A stretch of 64,000 nucleotides of DNA from a virus. Numbering within the stretch: the first letter of the stretch is position 1; every line of letters starts with the position of its first letter. The notes under the pieces are model-generated. The model saw only the letters and a program-made list of their open reading frames with translations, was not told the DNA's origin and did not search any database. The position numbers were made by a program, and so were the translations under genes. The DNA lies in IMG/VR virus record IMGVR_UViG_3300042296_000700, positions 32,001 to 96,000 of that record; one strand, 5' to 3'. Shown here piece by piece: positions 11,334 through 53,554 of the stretch.

Positions 11334-11344
11334 TACTGAAACCT
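11334..11344 (+). promoter_or_regulatory. TACTGAAACCT motif copy 2
   Basis: Lies in the 31-bp gap between terL and the recombination genes. Confidence 0.4.
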
Positions 11345-11355
11345 TGGAAGGTTAA

Positions 11356-11856: not shown

Positions 11857-11861
11857 CAGAC

Positions 11862-15627: not shown

Positions 15628-15647
15628 TAAATGAAAGCGATTTAATG

Positions 15648-15656
15648 TGGTAATGT
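15648..15656 (+). promoter_or_regulatory. Candidate extended -10 (TGG-TAATGT)
   Basis: TGn+TAnnnT in the intergenic gap before GGAGG and the Arg-rich gene. Confidence 0.4.
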
Positions 15657-15686
15657 TGGTCAGACTCGCATTTGGAGGACTGGCTT

Positions 15687-16094
15687 ATGCCCACAAGCAA
15701 TTTAACAGAAGATGTTGAATTTTTAACTGATGTTGATACGCGTGGCGACGTTGTTCGTCGTGCCCGATTCATTCGTCGTCCTCGTCGTGTAGGCGGACGA
15801 AACGTACCAGGAAATGCACGTTACTACCGTCGCCGTCAGCGTGAATTACTCGCTGGCAGGCGCGCGGCACAGCGAGCCGAGCGCGGTGGAGCACGGGCTG
15901 CCGCTGCTGGTCGCGCTGCACGTTCTGCAGGAGGTCGCGCCGCTCGGGCACCACGCGGTGCTGGAGGAGCAGCCCCCGCAGGTGGTCAGCGTCGCGCAGG
16001 GTTACTGACTCGTATTCGCCGCACCATCAGAGATGCCGCACGACGCGTTCAGGCTAACCGCGCTAGAAAACGTCAAGCAGCAAACCGACGATAG
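15687..16094 (+). CDS. Arg/Ala/Gly-rich highly basic protein
   Basis: GGAGG RBS then ATG 15687; short acidic N-terminus followed by RRARFIRRPRR...YYRRRQR...RRAG. Confidence 0.75.
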   Translation: MPTSNLTEDVEFLTDVDTRGDVVRRARFIRRPRRVGGRNVPGNARYYRRRQRELLAGRRAAQRAERGGARAAAAGRAARSAGGRAARAPRGAGGAAPAGGQRRAGLLTRIRRTIRDAARRVQANRARKRQAANRR

Positions 16095-16108
16095 GGAGGT
16101 AACCAGCC

Positions 16109-16975
16109 ATGCTGGTATCTATTTCTGACCTTTCCATGTATATGGATGTTAGGTTCAGCATTCGTCAAGAAGAGGCTGCTGCATTTATTCTTGAAGGTCT
16201 TCAAAGTGAACTTGAGGGCTACTTGCGTCGTCCTGTGGAACTAACAGATTTTGTAGAGACTTATGTTCTTGAATCAAACTTTGTTGGTGTACCGATGTCG
16301 TCGTTCTTCTCAAATGAGACATCCACGTCAGATGACTCTATTGGGACGGTTACATACGCTCAGCCTCCGCAGACTATCTATATTCGTAATTCTCCAGTTG
16401 TTTCGGTGCAGCAGGTGGCTGTTTCCAGTCTTACCGAAACTGGTCGTGTTCTTGGCGAAGCGGTAAGAAGGACTGCAAACATCACTTCGGTAACTGTCGC
16501 TGGAACAACTGTTACCTATACGGCTGCCAACCACGGTTTTACTGTTGGGCAGAACATTAAGGTAAGTGGTTTGAGTACTGCTGCTTTAAATCTTTCTTCT
16601 AATGTAATTTCTTCTGTTACTACTACTACTTTCACAGTGACACAAACTGGTCTTACTGCGGGAACTTTCGCTCAAACTGGAACAGTGGTTGCAGTCGGAA
16701 ATGATTACACCGTCAGAAGGTATGGAATTGACTTCTATCGTGGTTTTGCTAATGACGTCGTCACCATCTCCTACAAAGCAGGTTTGGCGGGAGATGGCAT
16801 AAAGGTTTTCCGTTTGATGATTCTTCGTGCCGCTACACGCGAAATGCAAAACATGCACGATGACGTTGTAGGTATTAAGGACTTGGAGACAAGAAATGTC
16901 GCTTCCCTTGAAACTGGTTTCCTTGAAAAAGAACTTGCCGCAGTAAAACGCTGGCGACGGAGCCGCGTCTCTTGA
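16109..16975 (+). CDS. Head-tail adaptor/connector with inserted beta-rich module
   Basis: Connector-like N- and C-termini (IEGL-like helix, VTISYKAG, LAAVKRWRR); insert TYTAANHGFTVGQNIKVSG; neck position. Confidence 0.7.
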   Translation: MLVSISDLSMYMDVRFSIRQEEAAAFILEGLQSELEGYLRRPVELTDFVETYVLESNFVGVPMSSFFSNETSTSDDSIGTVTYAQPPQTIYIRNSPVVSVQQVAVSSLTETGRVLGEAVRRTANITSVTVAGTTVTYTAANHGFTVGQNIKVSGLSTAALNLSSNVISSVTTTTFTVTQTGLTAGTFAQTGTVVAVGNDYTVRRYGIDFYRGFANDVVTISYKAGLAGDGIKVFRLMILRAATREMQNMHDDVVGIKDLETRNVASLETGFLEKELAAVKRWRRSRVS

Positions 16976-17430
16976 TTCGCATAAACATTGAATGTGATGC
17001 GGATGATGCCATCAAGTTCCTTGATGGGATGATTGACCGTAGTCAAAATTTTACGGTTGTTTTTCAATGGGCTAAAAGATATTTGGCTAAAGCAAATTCG
17101 GAGAACTTTACTAGTGGTGGGTTGCCTGTTGGTGGTTGGTCTCCTTTGAAGCCTAAGTATTCTGCATGGAAGGCAGTGAGATTCCCCGGCATGCCGCTCA
17201 TGCAGCAAACTGGAAAGTTGTTTCGTGACTTAGCGAGCCTTAATGGTTCCCCTAATGAGATAAATCCAACTAGCGCAACATTCGGAACACGTATTGAATA
17301 TGCTAAATTTCATCAGTATGGGACGACGCGCATGCCGAAGCGAGAAATTGTTTTTGAACCACCATTGTTCGCCAAGGAATTGGCAGAAAAGGCAGCCAAG
17401 CACGTTGTTGGGAAAGCGGGTGCTTTGTAA
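16972..17430 (+). CDS. Virion morphogenesis/neck protein (Mu gpG / P2 gpS-like)
   Basis: WSPLKPKY...LMQQTGKL...FGTRIEYAKFHQYGTTRMPKR. Confidence 0.85.
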   Translation: MIRINIECDADDAIKFLDGMIDRSQNFTVVFQWAKRYLAKANSENFTSGGLPVGGWSPLKPKYSAWKAVRFPGMPLMQQTGKLFRDLASLNGSPNEINPTSATFGTRIEYAKFHQYGTTRMPKREIVFEPPLFAKELAEKAAKHVVGKAGAL

Positions 17431-38274: not shown

Positions 38275-38580
38275 ATGGCTAATACAGCAAAAGTTCTTTT
38301 TAGAGGGGCTGCGACAACTAATACAAACACTACTTTGTATACGGTTCCTGCCTCAACGTCTACGGTTATAACGAATATTGTTGTTACTAATACGACATCA
38401 AGCCCAGCAACATTCACTTTTTCCCTAAACGGCGTAGTCATTGCACCCACTGTCGCAATTAGTGGCTTCTCAATGACGTCACTGGATATCAAACAAGTTA
38501 TAGCAACCACGCAAACACTTACTGGTGGAGCATCAGCAGCAACAGTCAACTTTCACGTTAGCGGAATGGAAATCGCGTAA
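38275..38580 (+). CDS. Small virion protein (paralog of 41593..41952)
   Basis: TLYTVPASTSTVITNIVVTNTTSS. Confidence 0.7.
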   Translation: MANTAKVLFRGAATTNTNTTLYTVPASTSTVITNIVVTNTTSSPATFTFSLNGVVIAPTVAISGFSMTSLDIKQVIATTQTLTGGASAATVNFHVSGMEIA

Positions 38581-41336
38581 TGGGTATTCAACAGTTCCCT
38601 ATTGGTGATACAACGATTGAAGCAAACGAACTTCTTTACGACCCAGTAAACAAGTTGCGTGTTTCAATGCCGCAGTCACTTATTGACACCGACTTTGAGT
38701 ACGGTACACAGATTTCTAAGTGGGAAAACCTTACAATGACGGACAACCGTCCGTTTGTTTACAACGCACAAACACAATTGGGCGGCATTACAGCAATATC
38801 TTTACCCAACCTTTCGCGCACAGTAACGGTAAGCACCTCATCTACACCAGCAGTCGGAACGCCAATTTCTGTTACAGATACTCATTTGTCTATTGCTAAC
38901 GGAAACTTTATTGTTGAATCAATTTCTTCTGGAGTGTCATTCACATATACTGCGCGTGCAGAAAACACGACAACAGTAACTTCTATCTATGACACAAACA
39001 AAACACAGATTTTTCAAGGCGCATTTTACACTGGCGCAGCAATCGGTGCTGCTCCTACTGTCACCTATTCTGGAACAAAAGTAACTGTAACAACAACAGT
39101 TCCTCACGGTCTTTCTATCGGCAACGAAATAGCACTCACTGGCATCACGACCTCTGGAGCCAACCCACCAAACGGAGCACACTTTGTCGCAGGTGTTTCC
39201 AGTGCGACAGTATTCTTTTATTATGTCCCAACTGCACCGACTGGAACATTGACCGCAACTTCTGCACTCTGTTATGCTCGCCCACAAGGGCAGTTTTTGC
39301 ATCGTCCGTTTGATGGTGGAGTAATTTTTTCCAGCAACTCAACATCAAATCATCAGACAGCAATCCGTCAAACACGACGTTACTTCCGATACCAGTCTGG
39401 TAAAGGTATTCAGATGAGTTCAGGAACACTCATCAAACCATCGCTACAACTAGAATCATTGACCTCATCAGGCACTTTGGTTACTGTTCAAACAAAAGAG
39501 AAGCACAACCTTCAACCTGGTTCAACTATTGAAGTATTCGGCGCAAACGAGACTGCCTACAACGGCAACTTTACGGTCTACACCGTTACTGGTTATAACA
39601 CATTTACATATACGGCATTAAGTGTCCCATCATCAGCAACAGCATCAGGTCTTTACTACGCAAACATTAGCGAATGGTACGGTTGCGCAAACCGCATTGG
39701 TTTGTTTGATAATCAGAACGGGATGTTCTTTGAACATGATGGTCAAGAACTAACAGCAGTTCTCAGAAATTCCACGTATCAGATATCAGGGCGCGTAAGT
39801 GTCACGAACGGTTCTCCAAGCGTCACCCAAACAAACGCATCATTCCCAACACGCTTTGCTAAGCAACTAGACATCGGCGACCACATAGTCATCCGAGGAC
39901 AGTCATACCGCATCATTGACATTGCGAGCGATACATCGTTAACAATTAGTCCTGCATATCGTGGAATAACATCCACAATGGTTATTGCTTCAAAAACGGT
40001 TGATACACACTATAAGCAATCAGAGTGGAACATTGACAAAATGGACGGCACGGGTCCTTCTGGATACAACGCCAACTTTACAAAAATGCAAATGTTCTAC
40101 ATTGACTATTCATGGTATGGCGCTGGTGCAGTTCGCTTTGGCATGCGTGGAACTGATGGTGAAATTAAATATTGTCACAAGTTAGTCAACAACAACGTTA
40201 ACTCAGAAGCGTACATGCGTTCAGGAAACCTTCCAGCACGCTACGAGTCAATAACTCAACCTCCATATACAAAACTTTCAGCAACGCTATCAAACGTGGG
40301 AACTACCGCGTCTGTTGTTTCAACATATGGTTTCCCTGCAGCAGGAACACTACTTGTATCAAACAACCTTTCTGGCTACGAATTTGTGAACTACACAGGA
40401 AAAACTTCAACGTCTTTCACTGGTCTCACTCGGGCACAAACAGGCGTAGCATCACTTGCTACGACCGTAGCGTCTGGTTCAAACGTTCTTACTGTTTCTT
40501 CTACGGCTGGTATTCAGGTTGGGCAGCGTGTGTTTGGAATAGGTAGTCCTGATGTTCCAGAAAACACATTTGTTTCATCAATTACCTCTGGAACTGTGCT
40601 TGCTTTAAGTCAGGCAGTAACAGCAACTAACCCAACACTATTATTCGCACCGATGAATGATGGCACAGCAAAAACTTTCACATATTCTGCGACCAACCCG
40701 ATTGGTGTTGAACTTGCTTGGCCGACATATGCGCCAACTATCTCTCACTGGGGTACTTCGGCAATCATGGATGGTCGTTACGACGACGATAAATCTTTGT
40801 TGTTCACGTACGGTCAGGTAACAAGTACGGCTGTTGCTTCTGGTGCAACGAACTGTTTACTTGCGATTCGTGTAGCACCTTCGGTTGATAATGGTACTTC
40901 TGGTGCTTTTGGTAGTCGCGAACTTGTCAACCGTATGCAGTTGATTTTGCGTGCGCTTGATATCACAACAACTACAGCAAACTCAAACCTGCTTATTACG
41001 GCTGTTCTTAACGGCACACCAAGCGCAGCCGCTACATGGATTTCACCTGCGACAGTCACTTCAAGTCTTGCTCAAGTCGCAGACTACAGCGGTACAGTCA
41101 GGACTATCTCTGGTGGCGAAACAACAGGTGGTTTCTTCGTAGGTACAGGCGCCAACTCTATTGACCTTACGACAGTACGAGACCTCGGTAACTCTATTCT
41201 TGGTGGCGGAACAACGACCACTAATACTGGCATCTACCCTGACGGTCCAGACACGCTACATATTATGGTACGTAACCTTGGTTCCTTATCAGCAAACGTG
41301 TTCTCACGTCTTTCATGGACGGAAGCGCAGGCATAA
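38580..41336 (+). CDS. Large virion structural protein (918 aa)
   Basis: KLRVS.PQSLIDTDFEYG, RQTRRYFRYQSGKG, QMFYIDYSWYGAG.VRFG, LSWTE; HGL/HNL beta repeats. Confidence 0.78.
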   Translation: MGIQQFPIGDTTIEANELLYDPVNKLRVSMPQSLIDTDFEYGTQISKWENLTMTDNRPFVYNAQTQLGGITAISLPNLSRTVTVSTSSTPAVGTPISVTDTHLSIANGNFIVESISSGVSFTYTARAENTTTVTSIYDTNKTQIFQGAFYTGAAIGAAPTVTYSGTKVTVTTTVPHGLSIGNEIALTGITTSGANPPNGAHFVAGVSSATVFFYYVPTAPTGTLTATSALCYARPQGQFLHRPFDGGVIFSSNSTSNHQTAIRQTRRYFRYQSGKGIQMSSGTLIKPSLQLESLTSSGTLVTVQTKEKHNLQPGSTIEVFGANETAYNGNFTVYTVTGYNTFTYTALSVPSSATASGLYYANISEWYGCANRIGLFDNQNGMFFEHDGQELTAVLRNSTYQISGRVSVTNGSPSVTQTNASFPTRFAKQLDIGDHIVIRGQSYRIIDIASDTSLTISPAYRGITSTMVIASKTVDTHYKQSEWNIDKMDGTGPSGYNANFTKMQMFYIDYSWYGAGAVRFGMRGTDGEIKYCHKLVNNNVNSEAYMRSGNLPARYESITQPPYTKLSATLSNVGTTASVVSTYGFPAAGTLLVSNNLSGYEFVNYTGKTSTSFTGLTRAQTGVASLATTVASGSNVLTVSSTAGIQVGQRVFGIGSPDVPENTFVSSITSGTVLALSQAVTATNPTLLFAPMNDGTAKTFTYSATNPIGVELAWPTYAPTISHWGTSAIMDGRYDDDKSLLFTYGQVTSTAVASGATNCLLAIRVAPSVDNGTSGAFGSRELVNRMQLILRALDITTTTANSNLLITAVLNGTPSAAATWISPATVTSSLAQVADYSGTVRTISGGETTGGFFVGTGANSIDLTTVRDLGNSILGGGTTTTNTGIYPDGPDTLHIMVRNLGSLSANVFSRLSWTEAQA

Positions 41337-41593: not shown

Positions 41594-41952
41594 TGGCTGT
41601 AACACAAAAACGTCTTGCTGGTCCTGCCCAGTTGACTGCAACAACCGCTGTCTATTACACGACACCAATCAGCACTACCACGATTGTCAAACAAATTATT
41701 CTAACGAACACTACTTCGTCAGCAAAAACTGTGACTGTTCGTTTGAAACCCCTTGGTGTGGCTGAGGCTGCCACACACGACATTATTAGCGGTATGACTA
41801 TCAACGCTAACGAAACTATGGCTTTCAACTGTTCGCTAGTTCTCAACAACAATGGTTCTACAGCAAACGCAACTAACAGCGACCAGTTGACAGCATTGTG
41901 TAGTTCGGCAACGTCAGTCAATATTACGATTGTAGGTATTCAAGAGGCATAA
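41593..41952 (+). CDS. Small virion protein (paralog of 38275..38580)
   Basis: YYTTPISTTTIVKQIILTNTTSS. Confidence 0.72.
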   Translation: MAVTQKRLAGPAQLTATTAVYYTTPISTTTIVKQIILTNTTSSAKTVTVRLKPLGVAEAATHDIISGMTINANETMAFNCSLVLNNNGSTANATNSDQLTALCSSATSVNITIVGIQEA

Positions 41953-42659
41953 TGGCTGGCATGGTTCGCTACCCGGCGTTGAACGCCATGGCGTCATTTA
42001 TTGATGCCCCTGACTCCGTCTATGGCACTGGCAATGACGGTTCTGTAACCATGGACGGAAGTACTATCGTTATCGGTATTACGCCCTCTTCAAATGTTTA
42101 TACGATGGCTCGCGACACATATTTCTATAATCTGACCATTAGTTCGGGTGTGCGTTTAAACCCAAATGGTTATCGTGTTTTTGTAAAGAATCAGTTAATA
42201 CTCGGTAGCAGCGCAATGATTGGTTATACGACAGGTTTTGCTTCTGCTGGTTCTATCCAACAGGGTGGGGCAGCAAGCACTCCAGTTACTCATAGTCTTG
42301 GAGGTGCGTCGCAAACACAAACTGCCACATTGCCAATCGCTTCGCTTGGCGGCTCGCAATACTTTCAACAGCCGTTGCAGGCAATAGATGGTTTTTCTGT
42401 TACCGCATCTGGCGGACCAACATTTTTACGCGGTGGCGCTGGAGGAGTAGGTCAGGCTGGTGGAGGGGTAGTAATTCTTGCTGCCCGCTACATCTCTGGA
42501 CCGACATCTGGGAGCGCAACAATTTCTGCTAAAGCAACATCTCCTGCTGGTGGTGGAGTGATTCTTCTTGTTTCATCTGGCGCAACATTGCCTACGACTG
42601 TAACAACAGACGTGACTGGTTATGCCTCTGGGATATTCTACTATATGCAGTTGGTATAA
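41952..42659 (+). CDS. Gly-rich virion protein (paralogous to the middle/C-terminal part of the next gene)
   Basis: DSVYGTGNDG.VT...RDTYFYNL.I...NGYRVFVKN; GGAGG..GGGVV. Confidence 0.72.
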   Translation: MAGMVRYPALNAMASFIDAPDSVYGTGNDGSVTMDGSTIVIGITPSSNVYTMARDTYFYNLTISSGVRLNPNGYRVFVKNQLILGSSAMIGYTTGFASAGSIQQGGAASTPVTHSLGGASQTQTATLPIASLGGSQYFQQPLQAIDGFSVTASGGPTFLRGGAGGVGQAGGGVVILAARYISGPTSGSATISAKATSPAGGGVILLVSSGATLPTTVTTDVTGYASGIFYYMQLV

Positions 42660-42660
42660 A

Positions 42661-45600
42661 ATGGCTGCGCTTGAAAGAACAGGAACAAATAGGGAACTGT
42701 ACAGGATTGGAGATATCGGTCCTGGTGGTGGGACGATTTTCCTTACCCCAAGTTCAACAGATAACACTACTGGTAAATATTTTGAAGTCGCTCCTCCCAC
42801 GTGGACGGGGTCACTTGGGAATACGTTAACGCGAACGAACCTATGTAAAACAAGTTCTTTTGATGGTGGTGTTGGTTTATGGACTGCCAATAGTGGGGCA
42901 GTAATCACAACTGATACAAACGAGCATCTTGTCAGTGGAAGTTCACTAAAAATTACGTCTTCAACAAGTAATTACAACAACGCCATACATGCCCTGATAC
43001 CCATTACTGCTGGTCAGAAATATGTTTATAGTGCGTACGTAAAAAATGTTGGCGGAAATACGCGACCTGTTTACCTCGCTGTTATTTGGTTTGCATCAAA
43101 CGGTTCAACTGTTGTAGGAAGCGAAATGAACTCTGTTTCTCAGGGAGACCTTGCTATTGCAGACGGCTGGCGGCGCAGATGGGTTGCTGGAACAGCACCA
43201 ATTGGCTCTGCATTCGCTCGTCTGCATATTTTAAGTGGCACCACGGGTCTGACAACAGCCGACATCACGCGTGCTGACGGTGTTTTGTTTGAACAAAGTT
43301 CTTTTTCTTTTTTATATCCGTTTTTTGATGGTGTGAAATCATATTTAGATTCGTCAATGGCATATACGGCTTTACCAAACCCTGGTACCGCAGATATTAG
43401 AACTCTTACTAATGAGGGTTACAGTATTATTCCAGAAACACGAGCGTGGTCTGGCAGTGCATATAACTCGTCATCAACGAGCACATGGATTGGTGGGACA
43501 GCAACACCAAAACTTAGAACAAGCAACGTTTCTTTAACTGGATACACTTTATATCCTGATATTGGATTAGGGGCGTCACAGACAGATATCATATTTAATT
43601 TTGGTTCACAAGAAAATACTGCAGCATATGTTGCAAAACAATATTCTGGCGGTGGTTATACAGACTGGTTTCTTCCATCAACATATGAACTCAAGGCACT
43701 CGGTGAGGCGCAATTTGCCACTTATAGCGTCGGGGTAGTTTCTACCTCTACGACTACATATGCCACTTCTTCTACTTCTTCTTCTATATTGATGAGAAGT
43801 TGGGTTGGTAGCACAAGTAGTAATGTGGGTATTTATGAGCCAGTCAATGTGCGTCCAGTACGAATGTTTTCTGCAACACCGTCAACGCATGTGCAACGTG
43901 CAGGTAACGACTCGGTGTATGGGAACGGATATGACGGCGATGTCACCATTCTTGGTTCAGGACAAATAACTTATCTTTCCAGAGATATGTATTACAACAA
44001 TTTGGTTATACCATCGCAAACAATGCTTCACACTAATGGTTACAGAGTTTTTGTTCGTAACAAACTAACTGTTAATGGATACATTGGCGTCAGCAGTGGT
44101 TCAAACACGATATTTGGTTTACTTTATGGAGAACCAAGCGCAGTTACGTCAAGGACAGTCTCTGGAACGACATCCACGAATGCTATTACATATCGTATTG
44201 GCGGCAAGGGTGGGGGCGCTACCGCTGATGGTACGAGTCTTCTCCCTACAGGAATTCTGTATTCTTTAGATGTTGCTACTAAAGGTTTGTTCATTGACCC
44301 TAATAACAGTCAGTTGACACCTTTGACTGGTGGTGCTCTTGGTACGCAAGGAAGTCAAGGAACAACATATCCAGCGTTAACTGATTCTGATACTTGGTCT
44401 GGTAAAACTGCTCCTACGTCTTGGCCTAGCCAGTCTGGTAATGCGGGTAATGCGGGTAATGCGGGTGGTGCTGGTGGAACTGTTGTTGCTGGTGCGTTAG
44501 GTGGTGCTGGTGGATATCCACCAAATGCCCATACTGGCACTGGTACCACTCCTGGTGGAAGAGGCAGTACAGGTAACTCTGGTAATCCGGGTACGGCTGG
44601 AAATCCTGGTGCGACAGGCAACTCAGGAAATCCTGGTACGGCAGGCAACCCTGGTACGGCAACTGGAGCAAATCCGAGTGTAGGTGGTGCTGGAGGTTCG
44701 GCTGGGCAAGGTGGCGCTGTCGTTGTTATTGCAGCCAAAACTATTACTGGTACTGGAAGAATTGTTTCGCTAGGTATTTCTGGCGCATTAGGTTCTGCTG
44801 GAACTACTGGTACTGGTGGTACGGCTGGTACGGCTGGTACGGCTGGAAACGCAGGTACTACTGGCGCAGCGGGCAATGCTGGTAGTGCTGGCACGGCTGG
44901 AAATACTGGAGACGCGGCACCAGGTATTAACACAAGTCCATATCATGCTCATCACCGTCTCGGTTCTGGACATATGAATACTCAGTACGCAAATGGCGGA
45001 GGGCATGATAGCGAACCTGGCGCGCATATTCCGCATGCTCATCTTTCGCAGGATTATCATGACCAGCATCGCGGCTCGCGACTTCATTTTCATATGCCTC
45101 ACGGCGGCAATACGGTAAACCATAACCCTCCTGTAGTTACGAGTAACAAGCCATTGACACATGGACCAGGTACGGTCTTTCATAATCCTTCACACATTCA
45201 CCATGCAGGTCACACGCACAACCCGCATCATGATGCTCCTCACGGACATAACCATCACACACATAGAAACGATGGGGCGACTTTACACAGTCCTCATACT
45301 TTCGGACCACACCACGGTGCTGCAAACGGGCAGGGCAATGACGGAACTCATGCCTACTACTACTGGGGCGGACATCACGGAACACAACATGCAGGCGGAC
45401 CTCACACCCATGGGTCGGCAGGCAAACATATCGGGTCACCCCACACTGGTACTCATTATGCAGGAGGTGCTGGTGGCGCAGGCGGACCCGCTGGCATTGC
45501 TGGAACGGCAGGAACAGGTGGTACGGGGGGCACAGGGGGTCTCGCTGGACCAGGAGGCACTGCGGCACCCGCACAACCTCAGGGCGGCACAGGTAAGCGT

Positions 45601-45750
45601 GGGGGTGCAGGCGGTGGAGGAGGTATCATTGTGATAACCGATAGCACCTCATTGGGAAGCGTAACTACCGACGTTACTGCTGGTGCAACTCAAGACTCAG
45701 ATTTCAACACAGCCTCTTCAGGGTTTGTATACTTAATTCAGAACACATAG
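42661..45750 (+). CDS. Modular fibre/adhesin: CBM-like domain, DUF1566-like segment, G-x-x repeats flanking a His-rich domain
   Basis: YRIGDIGPGGG.IF; jelly-roll-like ITAGQKYVYSAYVK; GGYTDWFLPS.YEL...VRPVRMF; (GNA/GTA/GNP)n; 41 His counted in 44944-45456. Confidence 0.8.
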   Translation: MAALERTGTNRELYRIGDIGPGGGTIFLTPSSTDNTTGKYFEVAPPTWTGSLGNTLTRTNLCKTSSFDGGVGLWTANSGAVITTDTNEHLVSGSSLKITSSTSNYNNAIHALIPITAGQKYVYSAYVKNVGGNTRPVYLAVIWFASNGSTVVGSEMNSVSQGDLAIADGWRRRWVAGTAPIGSAFARLHILSGTTGLTTADITRADGVLFEQSSFSFLYPFFDGVKSYLDSSMAYTALPNPGTADIRTLTNEGYSIIPETRAWSGSAYNSSSTSTWIGGTATPKLRTSNVSLTGYTLYPDIGLGASQTDIIFNFGSQENTAAYVAKQYSGGGYTDWFLPSTYELKALGEAQFATYSVGVVSTSTTTYATSSTSSSILMRSWVGSTSSNVGIYEPVNVRPVRMFSATPSTHVQRAGNDSVYGNGYDGDVTILGSGQITYLSRDMYYNNLVIPSQTMLHTNGYRVFVRNKLTVNGYIGVSSGSNTIFGLLYGEPSAVTSRTVSGTTSTNAITYRIGGKGGGATADGTSLLPTGILYSLDVATKGLFIDPNNSQLTPLTGGALGTQGSQGTTYPALTDSDTWSGKTAPTSWPSQSGNAGNAGNAGGAGGTVVAGALGGAGGYPPNAHTGTGTTPGGRGSTGNSGNPGTAGNPGATGNSGNPGTAGNPGTATGANPSVGGAGGSAGQGGAVVVIAAKTITGTGRIVSLGISGALGSAGTTGTGGTAGTAGTAGNAGTTGAAGNAGSAGTAGNTGDAAPGINTSPYHAHHRLGSGHMNTQYANGGGHDSEPGAHIPHAHLSQDYHDQHRGSRLHFHMPHGGNTVNHNPPVVTSNKPLTHGPGTVFHNPSHIHHAGHTHNPHHDAPHGHNHHTHRNDGATLHSPHTFGPHHGAANGQGNDGTHAYYYWGGHHGTQHAGGPHTHGSAGKHIGSPHTGTHYAGGAGGAGGPAGIAGTAGTGGTGGTGGLAGPGGTAAPAQPQGGTGKRGGAGGGGGIIVITDSTSLGSVTTDVTAGATQDSDFNTASSGFVYLIQNT

Positions 45751-45758
45751 GAGAAAAA

Positions 45759-46001
45759 ATGCCTTTATTTGACGAAATTGACACTAAGCAGCGTCTACAG
45801 ATTTTGCGTGGAACTTACAAATCTTTAGAAATTGAACTTTTTGAAGTTTTAACACGTCTGGGAATTGATGTTGATGACTACACTTATGGTGAGCATCCAG
45901 AATTTGCTGATTCAGAAGATAACTGGAATAAACGTCGCGTTATTGAACTAGAAGCAACTTTGGCTACAATTAAGGCAAAGATTGACTCGCTGGCGGCATA
46001 A
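45759..46001 (+). CDS. Hypothetical protein (80 aa)
   Basis: AGGAG RBS; helical. Confidence 0.75.
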   Translation: MPLFDEIDTKQRLQILRGTYKSLEIELFEVLTRLGIDVDDYTYGEHPEFADSEDNWNKRRVIELEATLATIKAKIDSLAA

Positions 46002-46004
46002 GTA

Positions 46005-46424
46005 ATGCAAAGAGTCTTCTATGTGCCTGCATCAACACCAATTACTGCTGAACTAAGCGAGCAAGCGGAATTGCTTGCTCTATCTGTGCTGCATGGTGAA
46101 AGTGCTTTATCGCGTTATGTTGACTTTGACCGCGACATTGCGCAGCCTATTTCTTTGCCATCCGAAAAAATATGCCTTTTCGCTAACGAAGTCCCAATAA
46201 TGCTTCATCAAAGCATTGAGGTAACTAATGATTTTGTTGATATGCGTGACGGCGTAACCCTTGTTTTGAATGGTAAAAAAATTATTGAGCCGTTGATACT
46301 TGAAAAACACTACGCTCGTTATGCCATTGAGTGCACTGGATACGGTGTTCAAGTGTTTGACATATTTGATAAATCTATGCGAATTTTAGAACACGGGGAG
46401 TATTATGTCGTTAACCCTGAGTAA
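46005..46424 (+). CDS. Hypothetical protein (139 aa)
   Basis: Tightly packed in the operon. Confidence 0.7.
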   Translation: MQRVFYVPASTPITAELSEQAELLALSVLHGESALSRYVDFDRDIAQPISLPSEKICLFANEVPIMLHQSIEVTNDFVDMRDGVTLVLNGKKIIEPLILEKHYARYAIECTGYGVQVFDIFDKSMRILEHGEYYVVNPE

Positions 46425-46992
46425 ACCAGCGCCATGTATTTTTGTTTACGAAAATGCTTTGACCGATGGCGAAAAGTTTATTTCAATGCTTGAAGAGCAA
46501 ACCAATGACGAATGGTCACCACTGTCTTGGGATTATTCAAAAACTGGTTCAGGACAAATCAGTGAGTACCGCTCATCGCGCATATGTTCACTGTTGGACA
46601 TTACACGCCCCTGTCCAAGTACGCCAATCTCAGATTTGTTAAATAAATCTATTCTCAAAGATATAGATACGTGCCTTAGTGATTACAGCACATATCACGG
46701 GATTACTGCGTTTATCGGCAATGAAGGTTGGATTGTTCTCAAATATGAGGGTCAAGCGCAATATCGCACCCACTGGGACCACGCACCAGATAACGCCAGA
46801 ACAGTTTCTATTGTGGCATTCCCTTACTCAACAACCAAGGTTGGCGGAGAACTAACATTCCCGCATTTCGGGATAACAATTAAACCCAAAACTGGTTCAG
46901 TAGTTATATTTCCATCTAATTTCCCCTACACGCATACGGCGCATCCAGTTGAAGATGGTGTCAAGTATTCACTTGTTACGTGGTTGAGGTAG
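46405..46992 (+). CDS. 2OG-Fe(II) oxygenase (prolyl-4-hydroxylase-like)
   Basis: LKY...HWD...RTVS...GGEL.F...G.VVIFPSNFPYTH..HPV..GVKYS. Confidence 0.92.
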   Translation: MSLTLSKPAPCIFVYENALTDGEKFISMLEEQTNDEWSPLSWDYSKTGSGQISEYRSSRICSLLDITRPCPSTPISDLLNKSILKDIDTCLSDYSTYHGITAFIGNEGWIVLKYEGQAQYRTHWDHAPDNARTVSIVAFPYSTTKVGGELTFPHFGITIKPKTGSVVIFPSNFPYTHTAHPVEDGVKYSLVTWLR

Positions 46993-46994
46993 AG

Positions 46995-47255
46995 ATGGAA
47001 TACGAAAACATTCCAAATGAAAGATTTGCATGGCTCGGCATTGCACCGCCACCAGATGGTGTTGTTGTTCCAGAAGATAATCCCGTCCCAATTGTTAAGG
47101 ACATATTGCCACCTAATCAAGTGACTGGCGCAGACGAAGGTCTTGGTATATTCAGGTGGCTTATGGCAGACGAAGATGAGCGACAAGACACATTGTCAGG
47201 GTGTAGATTGCTTGACAACTTCGTTTATATGCAAATACCAAAGGAAGACGATTGA
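46995..47255 (+). CDS. Hypothetical protein
   Basis: GAGG RBS; ATG 46995. Confidence 0.65.
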   Translation: MEYENIPNERFAWLGIAPPPDGVVVPEDNPVPIVKDILPPNQVTGADEGLGIFRWLMADEDERQDTLSGCRLLDNFVYMQIPKEDD

Positions 47256-47485
47256 TGGCTATAACATTTGACTACTCTGATAGTAACAATCATATTCAGG
47301 CTTTAACGGCACAGGTTAAAACTTTGATTGATGTTGACTACGATTTTGTTGACGCTAACAACGTTGAGGCTTTTAGGGTTGCTGCAAAAGCAGTGAATGA
47401 ACCAGTGCGCAGTAAATTGCTTCACATGCTCAACTTTATTGTTTTTAATAGTCAAGTAAATAGCGTGTATGGAGATAAACAATGA
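47255..47485 (+). CDS. Hypothetical protein
   Basis: TGATG coupling upstream, ATGA coupling downstream. Confidence 0.65.
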   Translation: MAITFDYSDSNNHIQALTAQVKTLIDVDYDFVDANNVEAFRVAAKAVNEPVRSKLLHMLNFIVFNSQVNSVYGDKQ

Positions 47486-48225
47486 GTGAGATTAATATTG
47501 TCACAGTCGGGAATGCGACTCATCGCATAAGTTCATTTTCGTGTCCTCCACAGTTGCCCTCTATTATTGAGTTCAAGGATTTTAGTCGTGCTATCTATTC
47601 TCGGTTGACAGAATCAGATAAATTTGATTTACGTACTTCTTCACGTTCTGAAGAGTTTCTTGCTTATGGTTTGGTAGGAGCCCCTGGTGGCGAGGACATT
47701 GCCCCAGTTGTTTGGAGTTCACATGGGCAAGCAGAAATGTATGGACGGCTATGTGGGGCAAAGGACGTTTTTATACATAGCGTTCCGTACGCTATTTATT
47801 TTGCTGCCCATAACTACGAAAATGTTTATGTTCTAAATTGTGCTTCAACACTTATTGCGGGTTCGCATGATACTGCGAGTGATGCAGATATCACAAATGT
47901 AACAACACTTTCATGGGACGATGCTTACAACAATATGCCCGAACTTGATATGGCTGTTGTGATGTATTCACATATCTGTGCCGACGATTCCTTATTTGAT
48001 GCAATCATGAACGCTATGAAGCCAAACGGAGTAGTTATCATCCACAACTCAAGCAATGGTGGTGCCCTGTATGAGGTACTTGGAGACAAGAAGCCTCTAG
48101 ATATGGCTGCACAGGTTTCTCTTTCCGCTCTGCTACACAAAAAGATTCTTGACAGAGGCGATTTTTTGACGCAACATTTTCAGGGCTGGGTTTCTCACAC
48201 TGTCTGCGTTAAACTGCCATCATGA
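47482..48225 (+). CDS. Class I SAM-methyltransferase-like protein, possibly degenerate
   Basis: C-terminal LDMAVV...AMKPNGVVIIHN resembles the MTase L.PGG motif region; no clear GxGxG motif I. Confidence 0.5.
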   Translation: MSEINIVTVGNATHRISSFSCPPQLPSIIEFKDFSRAIYSRLTESDKFDLRTSSRSEEFLAYGLVGAPGGEDIAPVVWSSHGQAEMYGRLCGAKDVFIHSVPYAIYFAAHNYENVYVLNCASTLIAGSHDTASDADITNVTTLSWDDAYNNMPELDMAVVMYSHICADDSLFDAIMNAMKPNGVVIIHNSSNGGALYEVLGDKKPLDMAAQVSLSALLHKKILDRGDFLTQHFQGWVSHTVCVKLPS

Positions 48226-49712
48226 CTAACGAACACGAACCTATAAGTTTTGGGATTGTTGGCTCTGGTACGGCAGGGCTAATTTCTGCAATCATGCTCA
48301 GGCAGGCATTTCCGTTATCTAAAGTAACGATTATTTCCTCAAGTACAATCGGCATCATTGGGGTCGGAGAAGGAAGCACTGAACATTGGCGCGAATTTAT
48401 GAATTTGTGCGATATTCCGCTTGAACAGATGTTAGTGAAAACAGCCGCTACACATAAATACGGTATTCGTTTTGAAGGTTGGTCAGGTTCGTTCCCTGAT
48501 TATTTTCATAGTGTTTCTGGCGATGAACAACTTTACGGGTGGGGTCATTACCCGACATATGCGGGCATTCTTGAGAATGGCGACTCATTAACGAGCCAGA
48601 CGAGCAGTATTGGTTTAATTCAAAACAAAATTAAACGCGAGAATTTACATTCCAATACTAACCAATACCATTTTGACACTTTCAAACTTAATAACTATTT
48701 TACCGAACTATGCTTTAAGCGTTCCATCAAAATGATTGATGGTCAAGTTACCGATGTTAAGCGCCACAGTGAAACAGGAAACATCTCTAGCGTACTTCTT
48801 GATAACGGAAGTTCTGTAGAAGCAGACCTTTGGATTGACGCAAGTGGATTCTCCCGTGTATTAATGAACAAACTAGATGCTTCTAATTGGAATTCATTCT
48901 CTGACTACCTCCTCGTTGATTCTGCAATAGCCGCCCCATCCGAATCATCATCAGACGGAATACGTCCATACACGAGAGCAATAGCCAAAGATGCTGGATG
49001 GATATGGGAAATCCCAACACAAGAACGGCGTGGAAATGGATACGTTTACTCATCGCAGTTTGTTTCTGACGATGAGGCTATTGCAACTTTAGAGAAACAA
49101 ATCGGACCGCTATCTATTGCTCCACGAACATTCAAATTTGATGCAGGTCATGTTAAGGAAGTTTGGGTCAAGAATTGTATGGCTATCGGTTTGGCTGCTG
49201 CTTTTGTTGAACCGCTAGAAGCAACATCAATTGGTAGTGCAATTCAGCAAATAAAATATGCAATACCGTATTTTGCGTCATTTGAGCAAAAACATACGGC
49301 ATCGCAAAAGCATTACAACAAACTGTTCACAACAATGATGGATAACATTTTGACGATGATTCGCCTTCATTACATATCGGATAGGCGTGATACTCCATTC
49401 TGGACTGCTTCTTCTGAAATGAAAATTAATGACTCGCTTCAAGAACTTCTTGACCTTTGGCAAGAGAGAGTTCCATGTCGTAATGACGTAGGAACAATCA
49501 ATGGGGAGATGTTCCATGCACCTCACTTATTCCACGTTGCACAAGGACAAGGTGTTTTAAATAGTCGCGCAGCAACCTTGATGATTGACAATTTTAATCT
49601 TCGCAAACAAGTGGAGTTAGATATTTCAAATCGTCGCCATGCCCGTTTTAATCATGAGTTGGTTGACCATCGTGAATCGCTTGATATGCAATTTGAGGAC
49701 AAACTACTGTGA
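48222..49712 (+). CDS. Flavin-dependent (tryptophan-halogenase family) halogenase
   Basis: GSGTAG FAD motif, GVGEGS, ATHKYGIRF (catalytic Lys), IDASGF, GWIWEIP, GNGYVYSS, FVEPLEATSI. Confidence 0.93.
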   Translation: MTNEHEPISFGIVGSGTAGLISAIMLRQAFPLSKVTIISSSTIGIIGVGEGSTEHWREFMNLCDIPLEQMLVKTAATHKYGIRFEGWSGSFPDYFHSVSGDEQLYGWGHYPTYAGILENGDSLTSQTSSIGLIQNKIKRENLHSNTNQYHFDTFKLNNYFTELCFKRSIKMIDGQVTDVKRHSETGNISSVLLDNGSSVEADLWIDASGFSRVLMNKLDASNWNSFSDYLLVDSAIAAPSESSSDGIRPYTRAIAKDAGWIWEIPTQERRGNGYVYSSQFVSDDEAIATLEKQIGPLSIAPRTFKFDAGHVKEVWVKNCMAIGLAAAFVEPLEATSIGSAIQQIKYAIPYFASFEQKHTASQKHYNKLFTTMMDNILTMIRLHYISDRRDTPFWTASSEMKINDSLQELLDLWQERVPCRNDVGTINGEMFHAPHLFHVAQGQGVLNSRAATLMIDNFNLRKQVELDISNRRHARFNHELVDHRESLDMQFEDKLL

Positions 49713-50515
49713 GCCTGCGGAAAATTGATAAGTATAGCGATATTAAAGTTCCTGAGGGAAAGATTGTTATTGTCCCTTGGGATAACCGTCTCCTTGAACT
49801 GCCTCCTTATTCTAACGATAGGGCTCCAGTTCCTCAGTGGATTAAAGATTCTCCTAGCACGCAAGGTTCAATTAGGCGCTGTGCAGCAACAATGGATTTT
49901 GTTTCTTCTGGCATAACAATCCCTGCTTGGACAAACTTTCGTTTTAACAAAACCGAAGGTGAAGATTCATGGGATTTTACTTGCGACCAGTTTGATGGCT
50001 TTGGGGCACATGAACATTTTGTGAATCAACCGTTTGCTTTTGAGCAAACAGGCTCATGTCCTATGACTAAAGTGCGGGCGATGGAAAATGTGGGGTACCC
50101 AAAGTTGGTTAACCCTTTTAGAATCATTACTGCACCAGGTTGGTCAACAATGATTTTGCCAGTTCTTTATGAGCCATCACGACATTTTTCTGTATTACCA
50201 GGCATTGTAAACACCGACTATTATCATGAATCAAACTGTGTGCTTAATTTGCTTGGCAAAGAGTCATTCACTATCCCGTGGGGCGCACCCTTGATGCATC
50301 TAATTCCAATTAAAAGAAGCACGATGGCGCACAGTATTGAATTCCTTGATGAAAGTGCATTCAAGTATGTTGTTGGGCGCGGATTTGGTTCTGGTGCTTT
50401 AAAACCCACTGGGGATGGATGGTCTTCTGCTCGTCTTTATCGCGGTTATAGGTTTAGGCGCGATGCAGAACTCGCTGAAGATAGCCAGAAAAAAAAGTGG
50501 TGGAAAACTAAATGA
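49709..50515 (+). CDS. DUF6065-like protein (dUTPase-like beta fold, oxygenase-cluster associated)
   Basis: PQW.K...IRRC...DF..G..IP.W, K..NPF.I.T.PGWS, GIV.TD.Y, G.PL..LIPIKR. Confidence 0.6.
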   Translation: MSLRKIDKYSDIKVPEGKIVIVPWDNRLLELPPYSNDRAPVPQWIKDSPSTQGSIRRCAATMDFVSSGITIPAWTNFRFNKTEGEDSWDFTCDQFDGFGAHEHFVNQPFAFEQTGSCPMTKVRAMENVGYPKLVNPFRIITAPGWSTMILPVLYEPSRHFSVLPGIVNTDYYHESNCVLNLLGKESFTIPWGAPLMHLIPIKRSTMAHSIEFLDESAFKYVVGRGFGSGALKPTGDGWSSARLYRGYRFRRDAELAEDSQKKKWWKTK

Positions 50516-51207
50516 TTTTCCCTTCTGGCGTTGGTGGCGCTATTGCTTACAAAGATAATGTTTTAAGCGATTCGTTGTGCGCTGACATTATTGAATATGC
50601 GGAAACACACAGCAGCATGATGTACGAAGGTCCAACTATTAGTGGAATTAACAAGCATATAAAGAATTGTTACGATTTTTCTTTGTCGTATTACAGTGAC
50701 CATGCAGAAACTGATGAGCAGCGAAAAGAATTGGCTGCTCTTAATGATTTGGTGTTTGAATCTTTTTCTCCTGCATTGGAAGAATATTGCTCATACTACG
50801 AAGGCTTAAATAACTGGACTAACAGATACGACACTGGATATCAATTTCAAAAATATGCCGCCAATGAAGGGTTCTACAAGCCTCATTGTGATGGCGGAGT
50901 ATATGAGGCTGAGGGTCTTGGAAATCGGGTACTTGGTGTCGTCATGTATCTGAACACCGTAACCAAAGGTGGGGGGACAAACTTTCCGCTGCATGAAGTT
51001 ACTGTTGATTCTGTTTGTGGACGTATTTCGTTTTTCCCTGCTAACTTCACGCATCCTCATGCTGGGTTGATGCCGCTGTCTTCTCCCAAGTACATTATTA
51101 GTACTTTTTGCTATACGGTTCCGAGTGCCCCTAGTGTGGATACTGCGGTTGCGGAACTTGCTTTGAACTATGATGAGCAGTTCAAGCAGACGCCAGATGC
51201 ATTATAA
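50512..51207 (+). CDS. 2OG-Fe(II) oxygenase
   Basis: QKY....FYKPHCD...RVL..VMYLN.V..GG.T.F...FFPANFTHPH.G..P....KYI. Confidence 0.92.
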   Translation: MIFPSGVGGAIAYKDNVLSDSLCADIIEYAETHSSMMYEGPTISGINKHIKNCYDFSLSYYSDHAETDEQRKELAALNDLVFESFSPALEEYCSYYEGLNNWTNRYDTGYQFQKYAANEGFYKPHCDGGVYEAEGLGNRVLGVVMYLNTVTKGGGTNFPLHEVTVDSVCGRISFFPANFTHPHAGLMPLSSPKYIISTFCYTVPSAPSVDTAVAELALNYDEQFKQTPDAL

Positions 51208-51435: not shown

Positions 51436-53514
51436 ATGCCTGGTGCCAACGTATTTGCCTACGATGGCACTGGCTATAAGCCCACCAACCGCTCCCTAAC
51501 GGCTGCTATAGCGTCACGTACTGCCTCTGCATACACGGCGGTTTCGTACGCTTATAAGTTAAGTAAAGTGCCTGTAGCAATATCTGGCGCTGCACTCGGT
51601 ACTGGAGCGACAAACTACACGACATCCACACCTCATGGGTTTGTCAATGGCGAAATTATTGCTATTACTGGAATAACTCCAAGTTCTTATAACACAACAG
51701 CCGCAGTCATGGTGGTTAATACTACCCAATTTTATATTGTGGGATTTAACGGTACAACGGGTGGCGCTTACGCATCTGGCGGTGTTGCCACTATTGTTAC
51801 TAACGTCAAGGCAGTTAGTCAGATTTGGCAGGGTTTCCCACCTACTCCGTCACAAGTAACTTTCGTACAGAGTTTTACGGGCACTGCCCCAGACTCAACA
51901 AACCGTACGACTATTTCGTGGACATGCGCAGCAACCACTACTCTTAACCGATTTGAGTTATACCGAAAAGTTGGTGCTGGAGCATTCACTGCTGTCAACA
52001 CAAATATAGGAGCGGGTGTGCGTTCATATGTTGTGGATGGACATGCGGCTGCGACTACATACACTTATTTTGTGAAGTCGGTAGCGAACTCTGGTCTTAC
52101 TTTAAGCGGTGCAGAAAACTCGTTTACTTTGACGGCGTCGGCTCAACCAACCGACTTTATTTTGCAGCAAGGAGTTACTTCTAATTCTGCTACTTGGCGC
52201 GCACGTTTTCCTGCTGGGGTATTCCAAAAAATTCAGTGGTACAACCTTTCTTATGATGGCGTAAATCTGTATTGGGAATTGATAACTTCTGCCACTTTGG
52301 CTAGTAATGCTACGACTAATGACTATACGCGGACTGGTTTGGCTGAACGGGCTGGATATTGGGCGCGATATGTTTTAACTAACTACAATAATCATACGAC
52401 GGGCTCAGATGTAGAAAATCAAAACTATAAATCAATCACAACTCTTAATGCTCCGCCTAATTCACCATCGCTAAATGGGATTAGTACTGGTCCTGCTCAA
52501 AACCCTATACCAGCAGTGGGTTCAAACTCTGGATTCGCAACATCTGGTGAGGTGTTGAAATATATTGGTGTCAACTATACGTTGGCAGCGGATACTGATT
52601 TCTTGAACTGTGAAGTTTATTTGTATTCAGGTACGTCAGCCCCAACAACTTTCGTTAGTAGTCAAGTGTTTACTACGGCACCAGGGGCTGCTCAGGCTGC
52701 GTGGTTTTACGTTTTACCTAACACTAAATATTGGGCTCTCGTCAGACAACGCGACAACAACGGTGGTGAAACTGACAACGCTACTGGCTGGCAGAGTGTT
52801 ACTACCCCCATCGTCTACTCTTTCACGAACGCTAACGCTTTTGACACTGCTACGGGAACAACGTATTCCGAAAGCGCTGCAACGACGGGGATGTATACAG
52901 GTGTTAATTATTTAACAACTGCTATCACTTATGACAGTAATTATAGTGGGACGTTATTGCACGGCGGAAGCACAGCAAACACCACTGACAGAAGTTTGAC
53001 CTCATATCTTTCTTGGAAAGTTGTTAGTTCTGCAACTTCGGGTCAGGATACTGTTGGAAACATCAATTTTGCGATGAGAGACGCCCGCGATAGTTTTCTT
53101 GACTACGGGATTTATGCAACATGGCTGGTTTTTTCTGTAAGAAAGCATAACGTTGTTCTTCAAATGTATAACTCTGCTGGCACATGGCTTGGCGGAGGGG
53201 CGTCGTCACTAGTAAACACAAGAAATAATCAGCCAACTGTTATTGCAAGTTTAAATAACTTTGATTGGGACCATAACTTCAGTTTTGCTACTCAGTCTGT
53301 AAAATCTACGGCTGCTAAAGGCGCGACAACATATGGTGGGGCAGGCAACGGAGGAACACCTTCTTGGAATATGTATTTATCAATAAGAAACCCAGTTAAC
53401 GTGAGCCCCCCTTATGTTCACCTTACGGAATATGAAAGAATAGGACTTCAGTACACTACTGAAACTTCCGTCACAACCTACACAACCACCCCAGCAGTAA
53501 CAAGATATTATTAA
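51436..53514 (+). CDS. Virion protein with FN3-like domains
   Basis: ISW...FELYRK...SY......TTYTYFVKSV; HGFVNGE module; S/T/G-rich. Confidence 0.7.
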   Translation: MPGANVFAYDGTGYKPTNRSLTAAIASRTASAYTAVSYAYKLSKVPVAISGAALGTGATNYTTSTPHGFVNGEIIAITGITPSSYNTTAAVMVVNTTQFYIVGFNGTTGGAYASGGVATIVTNVKAVSQIWQGFPPTPSQVTFVQSFTGTAPDSTNRTTISWTCAATTTLNRFELYRKVGAGAFTAVNTNIGAGVRSYVVDGHAAATTYTYFVKSVANSGLTLSGAENSFTLTASAQPTDFILQQGVTSNSATWRARFPAGVFQKIQWYNLSYDGVNLYWELITSATLASNATTNDYTRTGLAERAGYWARYVLTNYNNHTTGSDVENQNYKSITTLNAPPNSPSLNGISTGPAQNPIPAVGSNSGFATSGEVLKYIGVNYTLAADTDFLNCEVYLYSGTSAPTTFVSSQVFTTAPGAAQAAWFYVLPNTKYWALVRQRDNNGGETDNATGWQSVTTPIVYSFTNANAFDTATGTTYSESAATTGMYTGVNYLTTAITYDSNYSGTLLHGGSTANTTDRSLTSYLSWKVVSSATSGQDTVGNINFAMRDARDSFLDYGIYATWLVFSVRKHNVVLQMYNSAGTWLGGGASSLVNTRNNQPTVIASLNNFDWDHNFSFATQSVKSTAAKGATTYGGAGNGGTPSWNMYLSIRNPVNVSPPYVHLTEYERIGLQYTTETSVTTYTTTPAVTRYY

Positions 53515-53538
53515 TAACTAGTTATTAAGTGCTACACT
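53511..53538 (+). promoter_or_regulatory. Perfect 18-bp palindrome next to an extended -10
   Basis: TTAATAACTAGTTATTAA (53511-53528), then TGC-TACACT (53530-53538), then GGAGGTG RBS. Confidence 0.5.
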
Positions 53539-53554
53539 GTATTGGAGGTGTAGC

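Follow-up and report, generated by a model that had tools for sequence, protein, structure and literature searches.

The fibre-type protein and its enzyme cassette

This study concerns a fibre gene and the cluster of putative protein-tailoring genes that follows it in the genome of an uncultured phage. The locus lies in the 107-kb IMG/VR record IMGVR_UViG_3300042296_000700 (estimated completeness 73%), of which bases 32001–96000 were analysed; this stretch of 64,000 nucleotides is referred to as the window, and positions are those of the window unless a contig is named. A fibre open reading frame (ORF) at 42622–45750 is followed by nine genes at 45759–51207, and seven of the junctions overlap by 4–20 nucleotides. 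The reading frame extends from 42622, and translation probably begins at the ATG at 42661, which directly follows the stop codon of the upstream gene g235 (41952–42659); this arrangement matches that in relatives, and the start gives a fibre-type protein of 1029 amino acids (42661–45750). All of these genes, and the features within them, are on the + strand. Because the cassette genes are co-oriented with the fibre gene and translationally coupled, they are most likely co-made with the fibre. The original prediction for this locus had described nine tightly packed, partly overlapping genes after a fibre gene, and the gene map agreed. It had also placed them between two structural genes; this held on the upstream side, and the downstream side was not supported, the flank at 51436–53514 being without a family match.

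g235 encodes a 235-residue Gly-rich protein. Its AlphaFold2 (AF2) model is a single-chain beta-solenoid with a predicted local distance difference test score (pLDDT) of 83. Comparison of this model with the PDB gave no significant Foldseek match, and VIA-align returned only generic beta-helix, adhesin, and autotransporter matches (Z ≤ 7.1). Residues 21–126 of g235 align to residues 430–535 of the fibre, and the C-terminal rungs are common to the two by eye. By this alignment the fibre is a paralogue of g235, the scaffold protein without a His block, with Gly repeats and a His block inserted in the last scaffold loop, before the last rungs.

The first ~405–418 residues of the fibre (42661–43875) contain a CBM_4_9-like carbohydrate-binding domain (42838–43083; Pfam PF02018, 5.2e-6, 27.3 bits against a cut-off of 25.9) and a weak, below-cut-off Lcl_C-like stretch (43621–43863; PF07603, E = 0.004, 17.9 bits against a cut-off of 34.9). 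This phage-specific extension is missing from the closest relatives, L003 and L004, whose halogenases are 91% and 80% identical to that of the window and whose fibre proteins align to residues 419–1042. Because the relatives start at the equivalent of residue 419, the N-terminal 418 residues were taken as an add-on of this phage, and from the alignments the gain looks recent.

A first Gly-x-x (collagen-like) repeat region follows (44509–44991; 29% Gly), with runs of G-N-A, G-N-P, and G-T-A triplets, including G-N-P-G, and with arrays of period 9, 18, 27, and 45 in Tandem Repeats Finder (TRF). The Pfam Collagen model (PF01391) scored 25.4 bits on the fibre, just below its cut-off of 27.2, and there was a weak NCBIfam SclB-like match; among fibre homologues the longest G-x-x run ranged from 5 to 32 triplets. 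The His/Pro/Asn-rich block, delimited as at least 4 His per 30 residues (44884–45498), is ~20–23% His, with 8–9 HxH motifs; it is non-repetitive, with no tandem repeat or HxH periodicity found by TRF. At its C-terminal edge is the motif H-Y-A-G-G-A-G-G, whose Tyr (45457–45459) is a candidate modified residue. A second Gly-rich region (45472–45747; 31% Gly) carries the C-terminal beta-solenoid rungs recognized by comparison with the g235 alignment. The His-rich fibre with G-x-P and G-x-A repeats and a YYYW patch was thus as originally described. Over 45 clusters of homologues (≤70% identity), His made up 20% of residues inside the block and 0.7% outside it, compared with 8.8% and 3.9% for Pro and 9.6% and 6.3% for Asn. 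The block is conserved in composition, not in sequence. A regular HxH metal ladder was considered as a conserved feature and not supported, because HxH counts in the homologues varied from 0 to 32.

The halogenase gene, HAL (48222–49712), gave a whole-protein match to PF04820 (4.6e-105, 352.5 bits against a cut-off of 21) and to phrog_2928 (5e-109). Alignment to solved halogenases, with PrnA K79 and E346 as reference catalytic residues, located GSGTAG (GxGxxG), the Lys in THKYG, GWIWEIP (WxWxIP), and the Glu of VEPLE. Conservation of catalytic residues in all three enzymes was checked over 34–76 homologues; for HAL, K79, E330, E333, and the GxGxxG motif were 100% conserved (n = 76). The best solved matches were 9luq (1.4e-62), BrvH (6frl), and VirX1 of cyanophage Syn10 (6qgm, 2e-47), members of the same family with the same catalytic Lys and Glu and flavin motifs, at only ~30–40% identity. 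Alignments to the tryptophan halogenases PrnA and RebH stop at about residue 416–419 of 496, and the C-terminal part is unmatched. The assignment of HAL as a flavin-dependent halogenase, by family and by intact catalytic residues, is unambiguous. VirX1 is active in vitro, and both it and its BrvH-type relatives accept free small aromatics. We know of no natural substrate for these halogenases, and of no protein substrate.

OXY195 (46405–46992) and OXY231 (50512–51207) both match PF13640, the 2OG-FeII_Oxy_3 family (cut-off 27 bits), the former with 45.5 bits (1.5e-11) and the latter with 37 bits (7.1e-9). Their iron triads and associated lysines are H123/D125/H177 with K187 and H125/D127/H183 with K193, respectively; the triads are 99–100% conserved (100% in OXY231) and the Lys 89–94%. 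The closest solved structure is the Bacillus anthracis prolyl 4-hydroxylase (P4H) for both, 3itq/5hv0 at 1.9e-5 for OXY195 and 3itq at 8.7e-4 for OXY231. These and the enzymes of PBCV-1 (5c5t) and Chlamydomonas (2jig) are the nearest solved relatives, the likeness being weak and limited to the catalytic core, with substrate-binding regions that are not alignable. P4H enzymes hydroxylate Pro in collagen-like or Pro-rich peptides. By sequence, both oxygenases are nearest to the collagen-peptide P4Hs, and hydroxylation of peptidyl Pro is a candidate activity for them. That the halogenase and both oxygenases keep their catalytic motifs had been part of the original prediction, as had the lack of a flavin reductase, transporter, or small-molecule pathway gene, and both statements stood: a flavin reductase (PF01613) was not found in the 107-kb record, at its estimated 73% completeness, and Pfam found no transporter or synthetase domain among the cassette genes.

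The gene between HAL and OXY231 encodes p268 (49709–50515), which belongs to phrog_7084. p268 itself had no Pfam match, DUF6065 (PF19541) included, even at E ≤ 10. Among its relatives, 6 of 29 weakly match DUF6065 (best 1.2e-4) and 8 of 29 weakly match dUTPase. The AF2 model (pLDDT 83) had dUTPases as its top Foldseek matches (probability 1.0, TMt ~0.6), and by this model p268 has a dUTPase-like fold. It is 25% identical (2e-8) to gp43 of cyanophage Syn9, and Cys58 and Cys117 are 97–100% conserved. The earlier label of DUF6065-like therefore fits some relatives weakly and not the protein itself, for which a dUTPase-like fold and membership of the Syn9 gp43 family are indicated instead.

The remaining genes are less well characterized. 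p247 (47482–48225), originally called methyltransferase-like, had no Pfam or NCBIfam match and no GxGxG S-adenosylmethionine-binding motif; the sole lead to that fold is a set of methyltransferase look-alikes at 0.89–0.90 in the Atlas language-model search, so that it is possibly a degenerate methyltransferase fold. s80 (45759–46001) is a small protein that looks coiled-coil by eye, and most relatives have a gene of 75–82 residues in its position; our own hidden Markov model (HMM) for it detected 67 ORFs in the loci. s139 (46005–46424) is a conserved small protein with 25–31% identical homologues in many loci (119 ORFs by our own HMM), for which the Atlas search gave nothing useful. s91 (46980–47255) and s77 (47252–47485) are lineage-specific ORFs with homologues only in L003 and L004.

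Linkage and co-variation among relatives

Relatives of the locus were collected by a halogenase scan, which gave 42 loci (43–91% identity), and by two g235-family alignments, which gave 79 and 80 loci chosen without reference to the enzymes. Gene maps were made from ORF calls, BLAST, and our own HMMs, and linkage was judged where at least ~5.5 kb downstream of g235 was available. Every locus with enough flank had the same core order: g235, then a His-rich g235 paralogue (11–45 His per 100 residues), then halogenase and p268. g235 was always directly upstream of the His-rich paralogue. No counter-example to this order was found in the clade, and no such locus was without halogenase or p268. p268 was present in 67/67 unique modules as the constant partner of the halogenase, an OXY195-type oxygenase in 64 of the 67, and OXY231 in 31; p247 was present in a minority of relatives. 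OXY231, p247, s139, and s80 are variable, and only the nearest relatives have s91 and s77. A p268 alignment scan of 185,579 prokaryote genomes (one per species) found only three metagenome-assembled genome (MAG) contigs, all with the same phage gene order. These results support the conclusion that the fibre-type protein and the enzymes are one inherited unit and not a loose island.

One 100-kb phage contig (L148, IMGVR_UViG_3300042291_001557; also 3300042545_001591) contains two complete modules in tandem at 616–17217. The two diverged anciently, with 47% identity between the halogenases and 57% between the g235 copies. A separate set of small proteins, oxygenase, halogenase, and p268 accompanies each His/Gly-rich paralogue, and an OXY231-type gene occurs only in the second copy. 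The retention of two diverged enzyme sets makes more sense if each set is dedicated to the paralogue beside it.

The composition of the His block was compared with the enzyme content of the modules. The OXY195-type gene is missing from 3 of 68 unique modules, which represent three separate changes on the halogenase tree, and these three modules have the three lowest-Pro His blocks (2.0, 2.4, and 4.1% Pro versus at least 4.6% in the other 65). Outside the block their Pro content is ordinary, ranking 24, 38, and 12 of 68. The three blocks (L032, 7079–8626; L102, 963–2258; L193, 10648–12441) are Pro-poor but contain Cys or CC pairs, with 14 Cys in the L032 protein, and in two of the three loci a 247-residue methyltransferase-like gene occupies the place of the oxygenase.

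The motif [Y/W]-x-G-G(-x-G-G) marks the C-terminal edge of the block in 59 of 68 unique homologues, with Tyr in 50 and Trp in 9; one has Phe, and eight have no such motif. The background of aromatic residues in the fibre homologues is 56% Tyr, 33% Phe, and 11% Trp. A distant MAG member keeps the edge motif in an insert that is aromatic-rich and not His-rich. The avoidance of Phe at this position would fit a requirement for an electron-rich ring, the kind that flavin halogenases attack, and would also fit a simple hydrogen-bonding role.

Two other candidate targets, both named in the original prediction, were rejected as general ones. Trp, as in the YYYW patch, does not occur in the His block of ~19 of 45 clusters, several proteins lack it over their whole length, and in one block Tyr is missing as well as Trp. 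Collagen-type G-x-P-G is absent from 9 of the 65 oxygenase-bearing modules; the His/Pro block is a likelier site for OXY195 than the collagen-like triplets, if OXY195 hydroxylates Pro.

Phage setting and parallels in other systems

Nearly all genes at ~9.9–57.6 kb of the window are on the + strand, by the ORF map and PHROG/Pfam annotation. The morphogenesis module includes genes for a terminase large subunit, tail sheath, tape-measure-like and baseplate-like proteins, and several fibre or 'virion structural' proteins, with an endolysin-like gene last; the tail sheath, tape-measure, and baseplate-like matches suggest a contractile tail. Several further Gly-rich or collagen-like fibre genes lie in the same operon, and the cassette is placed just ahead of the lysis genes in the window and in relatives. 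A scan for consensus promoters gave 28 sites, fewer than expected from shuffled sequences (33); terminator-like sites numbered 31 versus 17 in shuffles, but most were inside genes, and no usable information on transcription units was obtained. A megablast search with the region returned nothing, so no close cultured relative was identified, and the terminase is at most ~41% identical to that of any isolate, the nearest being psiM2 and Gordonia phages.

Several neighbouring genes are described here for completeness. Upstream, a 918-residue protein (38580–41336) shares 44–46% identity along its whole length with 'virion structural proteins' from T4-like cyanophages (S-PM2 p175, S-RIM44, Syn1). 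The rest of the phage, judged by its terminase, is not T4-like, and the comparison suggests that this fibre-region gene is common to different phage families. A PAPS-reductase-like gene lies among the head and packaging genes (13922–15085; phrog_2302, 2.6e-72). The two large genes after the cassette (51436–56266; 692 and 903 residues) had no PHROG match and no convincing Pfam match, and they are poorly kept in relatives (42% and 66%, over part of the length); this puts the cassette at the boundary of the fibre genes with a variable region preceding the endolysin. Module-bearing phage contigs have been binned in MAGs of two phyla, L198 in Actinomycetota (RHAS01000028.1) and L199 and L200 in Gammaproteobacteria (SP183), and this binning is weak and conflicting as host evidence for the clade.

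Similar enzyme arrays occur in T4-like cyanophages. In Syn9, fibres and the Gly-rich gp36, gp38, and gp39 directly precede two halogenases, gp43, and dioxygenases. In S-SRM01 the halogenase has a fibre gene on one side and the 'adhesin tip complex' gene on the other; Sf-CH3 has three Gly-rich fibre genes ahead of a halogenase, a p268 homologue, and dioxygenases; and in S-H38 halogenase and oxygenase genes lie, more loosely, near Gly-rich fibre or adhesin genes. A p268 homologue is thus present in both Syn9 and Sf-CH3, and its family was named 'novel dUTPase-fold protein with a conserved cysteine' in the 2010 description of the Syn9 cluster by Iyer, Abhiman, de Souza, and Aravind (PMC2938197). 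The window cluster shares with the Syn9/Syn10-type cluster a co-directional array of Trp-halogenase-family enzymes, classical 2OG-Fe(II) dioxygenases, and a dUTPase-fold Cys protein after fibre or Gly-rich adhesin-type genes. It differs in being reduced to one halogenase and two oxygenases (one or two in the clade) and in belonging to a phage that is not T4-like. The cyanophage neighbours are Gly-rich (23–37%) and not His-rich; Syn9 gp38 has at most 10 His per 100 residues, in contrast to the strongly His-rich insertion protein of the window phage.

Outside phages, the flavoenzyme fold acts on a co-encoded protein or peptide in LodB, GoxB, and QhpG, which target protein-bound Trp, and in MibH (5uao), SrpI, and ChlH, the halogenases of ribosomally synthesized and post-translationally modified peptides. 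HAL matched MibH at 3.7e-44, and had weak NCBIfam matches to QhpG, LodB, and GoxB, all well under the cut-offs. The target in those systems is a defined Trp, a residue frequently missing from blocks of the window type. A JOR/JmjC (MINA/NO66-like) dioxygenase, as in the Syn9-type cluster, was looked for among the nine cassette genes and had no Pfam match. The HxH motifs of the window fibre, nine in number, are a point of likeness to the long-tail-fibre tip gp37 of T4, in which HxH motifs bind iron; the window fibre differs in having no sequence similarity to gp37, no regular HxH spacing, and a scaffold modelled from g235 as a single-chain beta-solenoid. In Nereis jaws, His/Gly-rich structural proteins are metal-loaded and halogenated. 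The combination of a His/Gly-rich protein with halogenation chemistry is alike in the two cases; the jaw is an animal tissue with different enzymes, and the comparison is an analogy only.

Proposed tailoring of the fibre and alternative explanations

We propose that the locus, within the tail-fibre operon of an uncultured phage clade, is a module that pairs a fibre with tailoring enzymes, and that the enzymes modify the fibre after translation; we give this an even chance of being correct. In such a module g235 would have been duplicated, and one copy, the fibre, would have gained collagen-like G-x-x runs and a long His/Pro/Asn-rich loop before the last beta-rungs; in the window phage it may additionally have gained two N-terminal domains of a sugar-binding type. 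The fibre, a presumed virion protein, would be made late, together with the enzymes. OXY195 would then hydroxylate Pro of the His block, which is the step with the best support. The halogenase, with host-reduced flavin and halide, would halogenate an electron-rich ring, for which the edge Tyr/Trp is the best candidate; less conventionally, it may act on another ring of the insert. p268 would be an obligate helper of the halogenase, OXY231 and p247 optional, lineage-specific decorations, and s80 and s139 possible assembly helpers. It is possible, though doubtful, that the phage both hydroxylates the His-block Pro and halogenates the edge Tyr/Trp of its own fibre-tip protein. This would be the first halogenated structural protein of a virus and would reveal the natural substrate, missing so far, on which viral halogenases act, in a tip that may be metal-loaded, chemically hardened, or receptor-tuned.

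Several observations weigh against fibre tailoring. The linkage was found within one clade and is partly shared ancestry, and the cassette is at a fibre/lysis junction, a common site for cargo genes. In three more distant relatives (L031, L034, and L038) the halogenase follows Gly-rich proteins that lack a His block, and p268 is absent. The co-variation of oxygenase and Pro counts three events (sign test, p = 0.25) and is suggestive only, because a sign test with three pairs cannot be significant. An association of OXY231 with Asn, which had a naive p of 5e-11, was dropped when it proved to correspond to only 4 changes on the tree. The edge motif is lacking in 8 of 68 homologues, and beyond His, Gly, Pro, and Asn no residue type is universal in the block. 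The clade is without isolates, and neither the fibre nor g235 had a useful tblastn match among cultured phages. In cyanophages S-PM2, P-SSM2, S-MbCM6, and S-SCSM2R the halogenases lie away from fibres, in metabolic islands with nrd, hli, and psbA genes, and in HTVC008M the halogenase lies between terminase genes, so that linkage to fibres is not a property of the entire halogenase family. A synteny survey suggested with the original prediction thus gave both kinds of result, linkage to the His/Gly-rich paralogue in every adequate locus of the clade and, elsewhere, the independent occurrence that had been named in advance as contrary to it.

The main rival explanation is that during infection the enzymes produce or change a metabolite, halogenated and hydroxylated, that derives from an amino acid or peptide of the host, and that the fibre is a mere neighbour. 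The nearest solved homologues, VirX1 and BrvH-type enzymes, act on free small aromatics, and several cyanophage halogenases are in metabolic-gene islands. The homologous Syn9 gp41–gp54 dioxygenase-halogenase cluster was also read as one for secondary-metabolite or small-molecule synthesis, the hydroxylation of co-encoded collagen-like/tail-collar proteins being proposed in the same paper for bacterial clusters and not for phage halogenase arrays (PMC2938197). We nevertheless consider a small-molecule pathway unlikely, given that the cassette has no synthetase, carrier, or transporter gene and the record no flavin reductase, that the cassette has a fixed position behind one protein family in ~70 distinct modules, that one phage carries the entire module twice, together with the fibre, and that oxygenase loss tracks the Pro content of the block. 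The enzymes might instead tailor another target, either a different virion protein, such as g235 or one of the further collagen-like fibres that the operon encodes, or a component of the host surface, and the His block might have a separate role, for example metal binding at the tip. The presence of several further Gly-rich or collagen-like fibre genes in the operon would suit this, as would the Gly-rich, not His-rich, neighbours in L031, L034, L038, and the cyanophages and the iron-binding HxH motifs of T4 gp37. Pro depletion confined to the His block argues otherwise, as does the pairing, in the two-module phage, of each His/Gly-rich paralogue with one enzyme set; the range of HxH counts, from 0 to 32, speaks against a metal ladder in particular. 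This explanation seems less likely still.

It is improbable that the linkage is without function, the cassette being cargo that inserted once at an ancestral fibre/lysis junction and was kept by synteny. The cassette does lie just before the lysis genes in the window and its relatives, and all positive loci may share one ancestor. However, catalytic residues are 99–100% conserved down to 43% identity, neither halogenase nor p268 was lost in any locus with enough flank, enzymes beside Gly-rich fibre genes recur in an unrelated T4-like family, and a second, diverged module is kept in one phage. The dUTPase-like fold of p268, together with the location of p268 or halogenase homologues downstream of nrdA/nrdB in S-RIM4, S-PM2, and P-SSM2, could indicate nucleotide or DNA modification, with p268 binding a nucleotide that the halogenase or the oxygenases modify. 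This we regard as very improbable: the cassette is in a fibre operon and not in a replication module, the dUTPase model is weakly matched by only 8/29 members of the p268 family, and the stretch behind nrdB is, in cyanophages, a variable island of a general kind.

Overall, the module is real and conserved, and the tailoring of the fibre is partly supported. In its favour are the inheritance of the module as a unit, the intact catalytic residues, and the Tyr/Trp edge motif; the constant composition of the His block, the two-module phage, the co-variation with Pro, and the cyanophage parallels point, within limits, to more than common descent. The idea of a substrate-plus-tailoring cassette survives in this form, without the YYYW/Trp and G-x-P-G targets first named for it. 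The enzyme set and its occurrence in phages (PMC2938197) and the activity of a viral halogenase, VirX1, are known already. New here are the two-module phage, the co-variation of oxygenase and Pro, within the phylogenetic limits given above, the motif with Tyr or Trp at the block edge, and the finding that Trp, G-x-P-G, and Asn did not hold up. No paper that connects His-rich fibres with phage hydroxylases or halogenases came up in a search of the literature.

Genes for halogenases and 2OG oxygenases occur widely in phages, and the question of their natural targets dates from the 2010 description of the clusters. The module provides a compact substrate candidate, with one protein, one to two oxygenases, one halogenase, and one helper, and makes specific predictions, namely modification of Pro in the His block and of the Tyr/Trp-x-G-G edge. 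If tailoring of the fibre were refuted, the strict linkage would still need an explanation. If it is correct, enzymatic halogenation and hydroxylation would join the known ways in which phages diversify their receptor-binding proteins, and the clade would be a source of protein-directed halogenases for biocatalysis.

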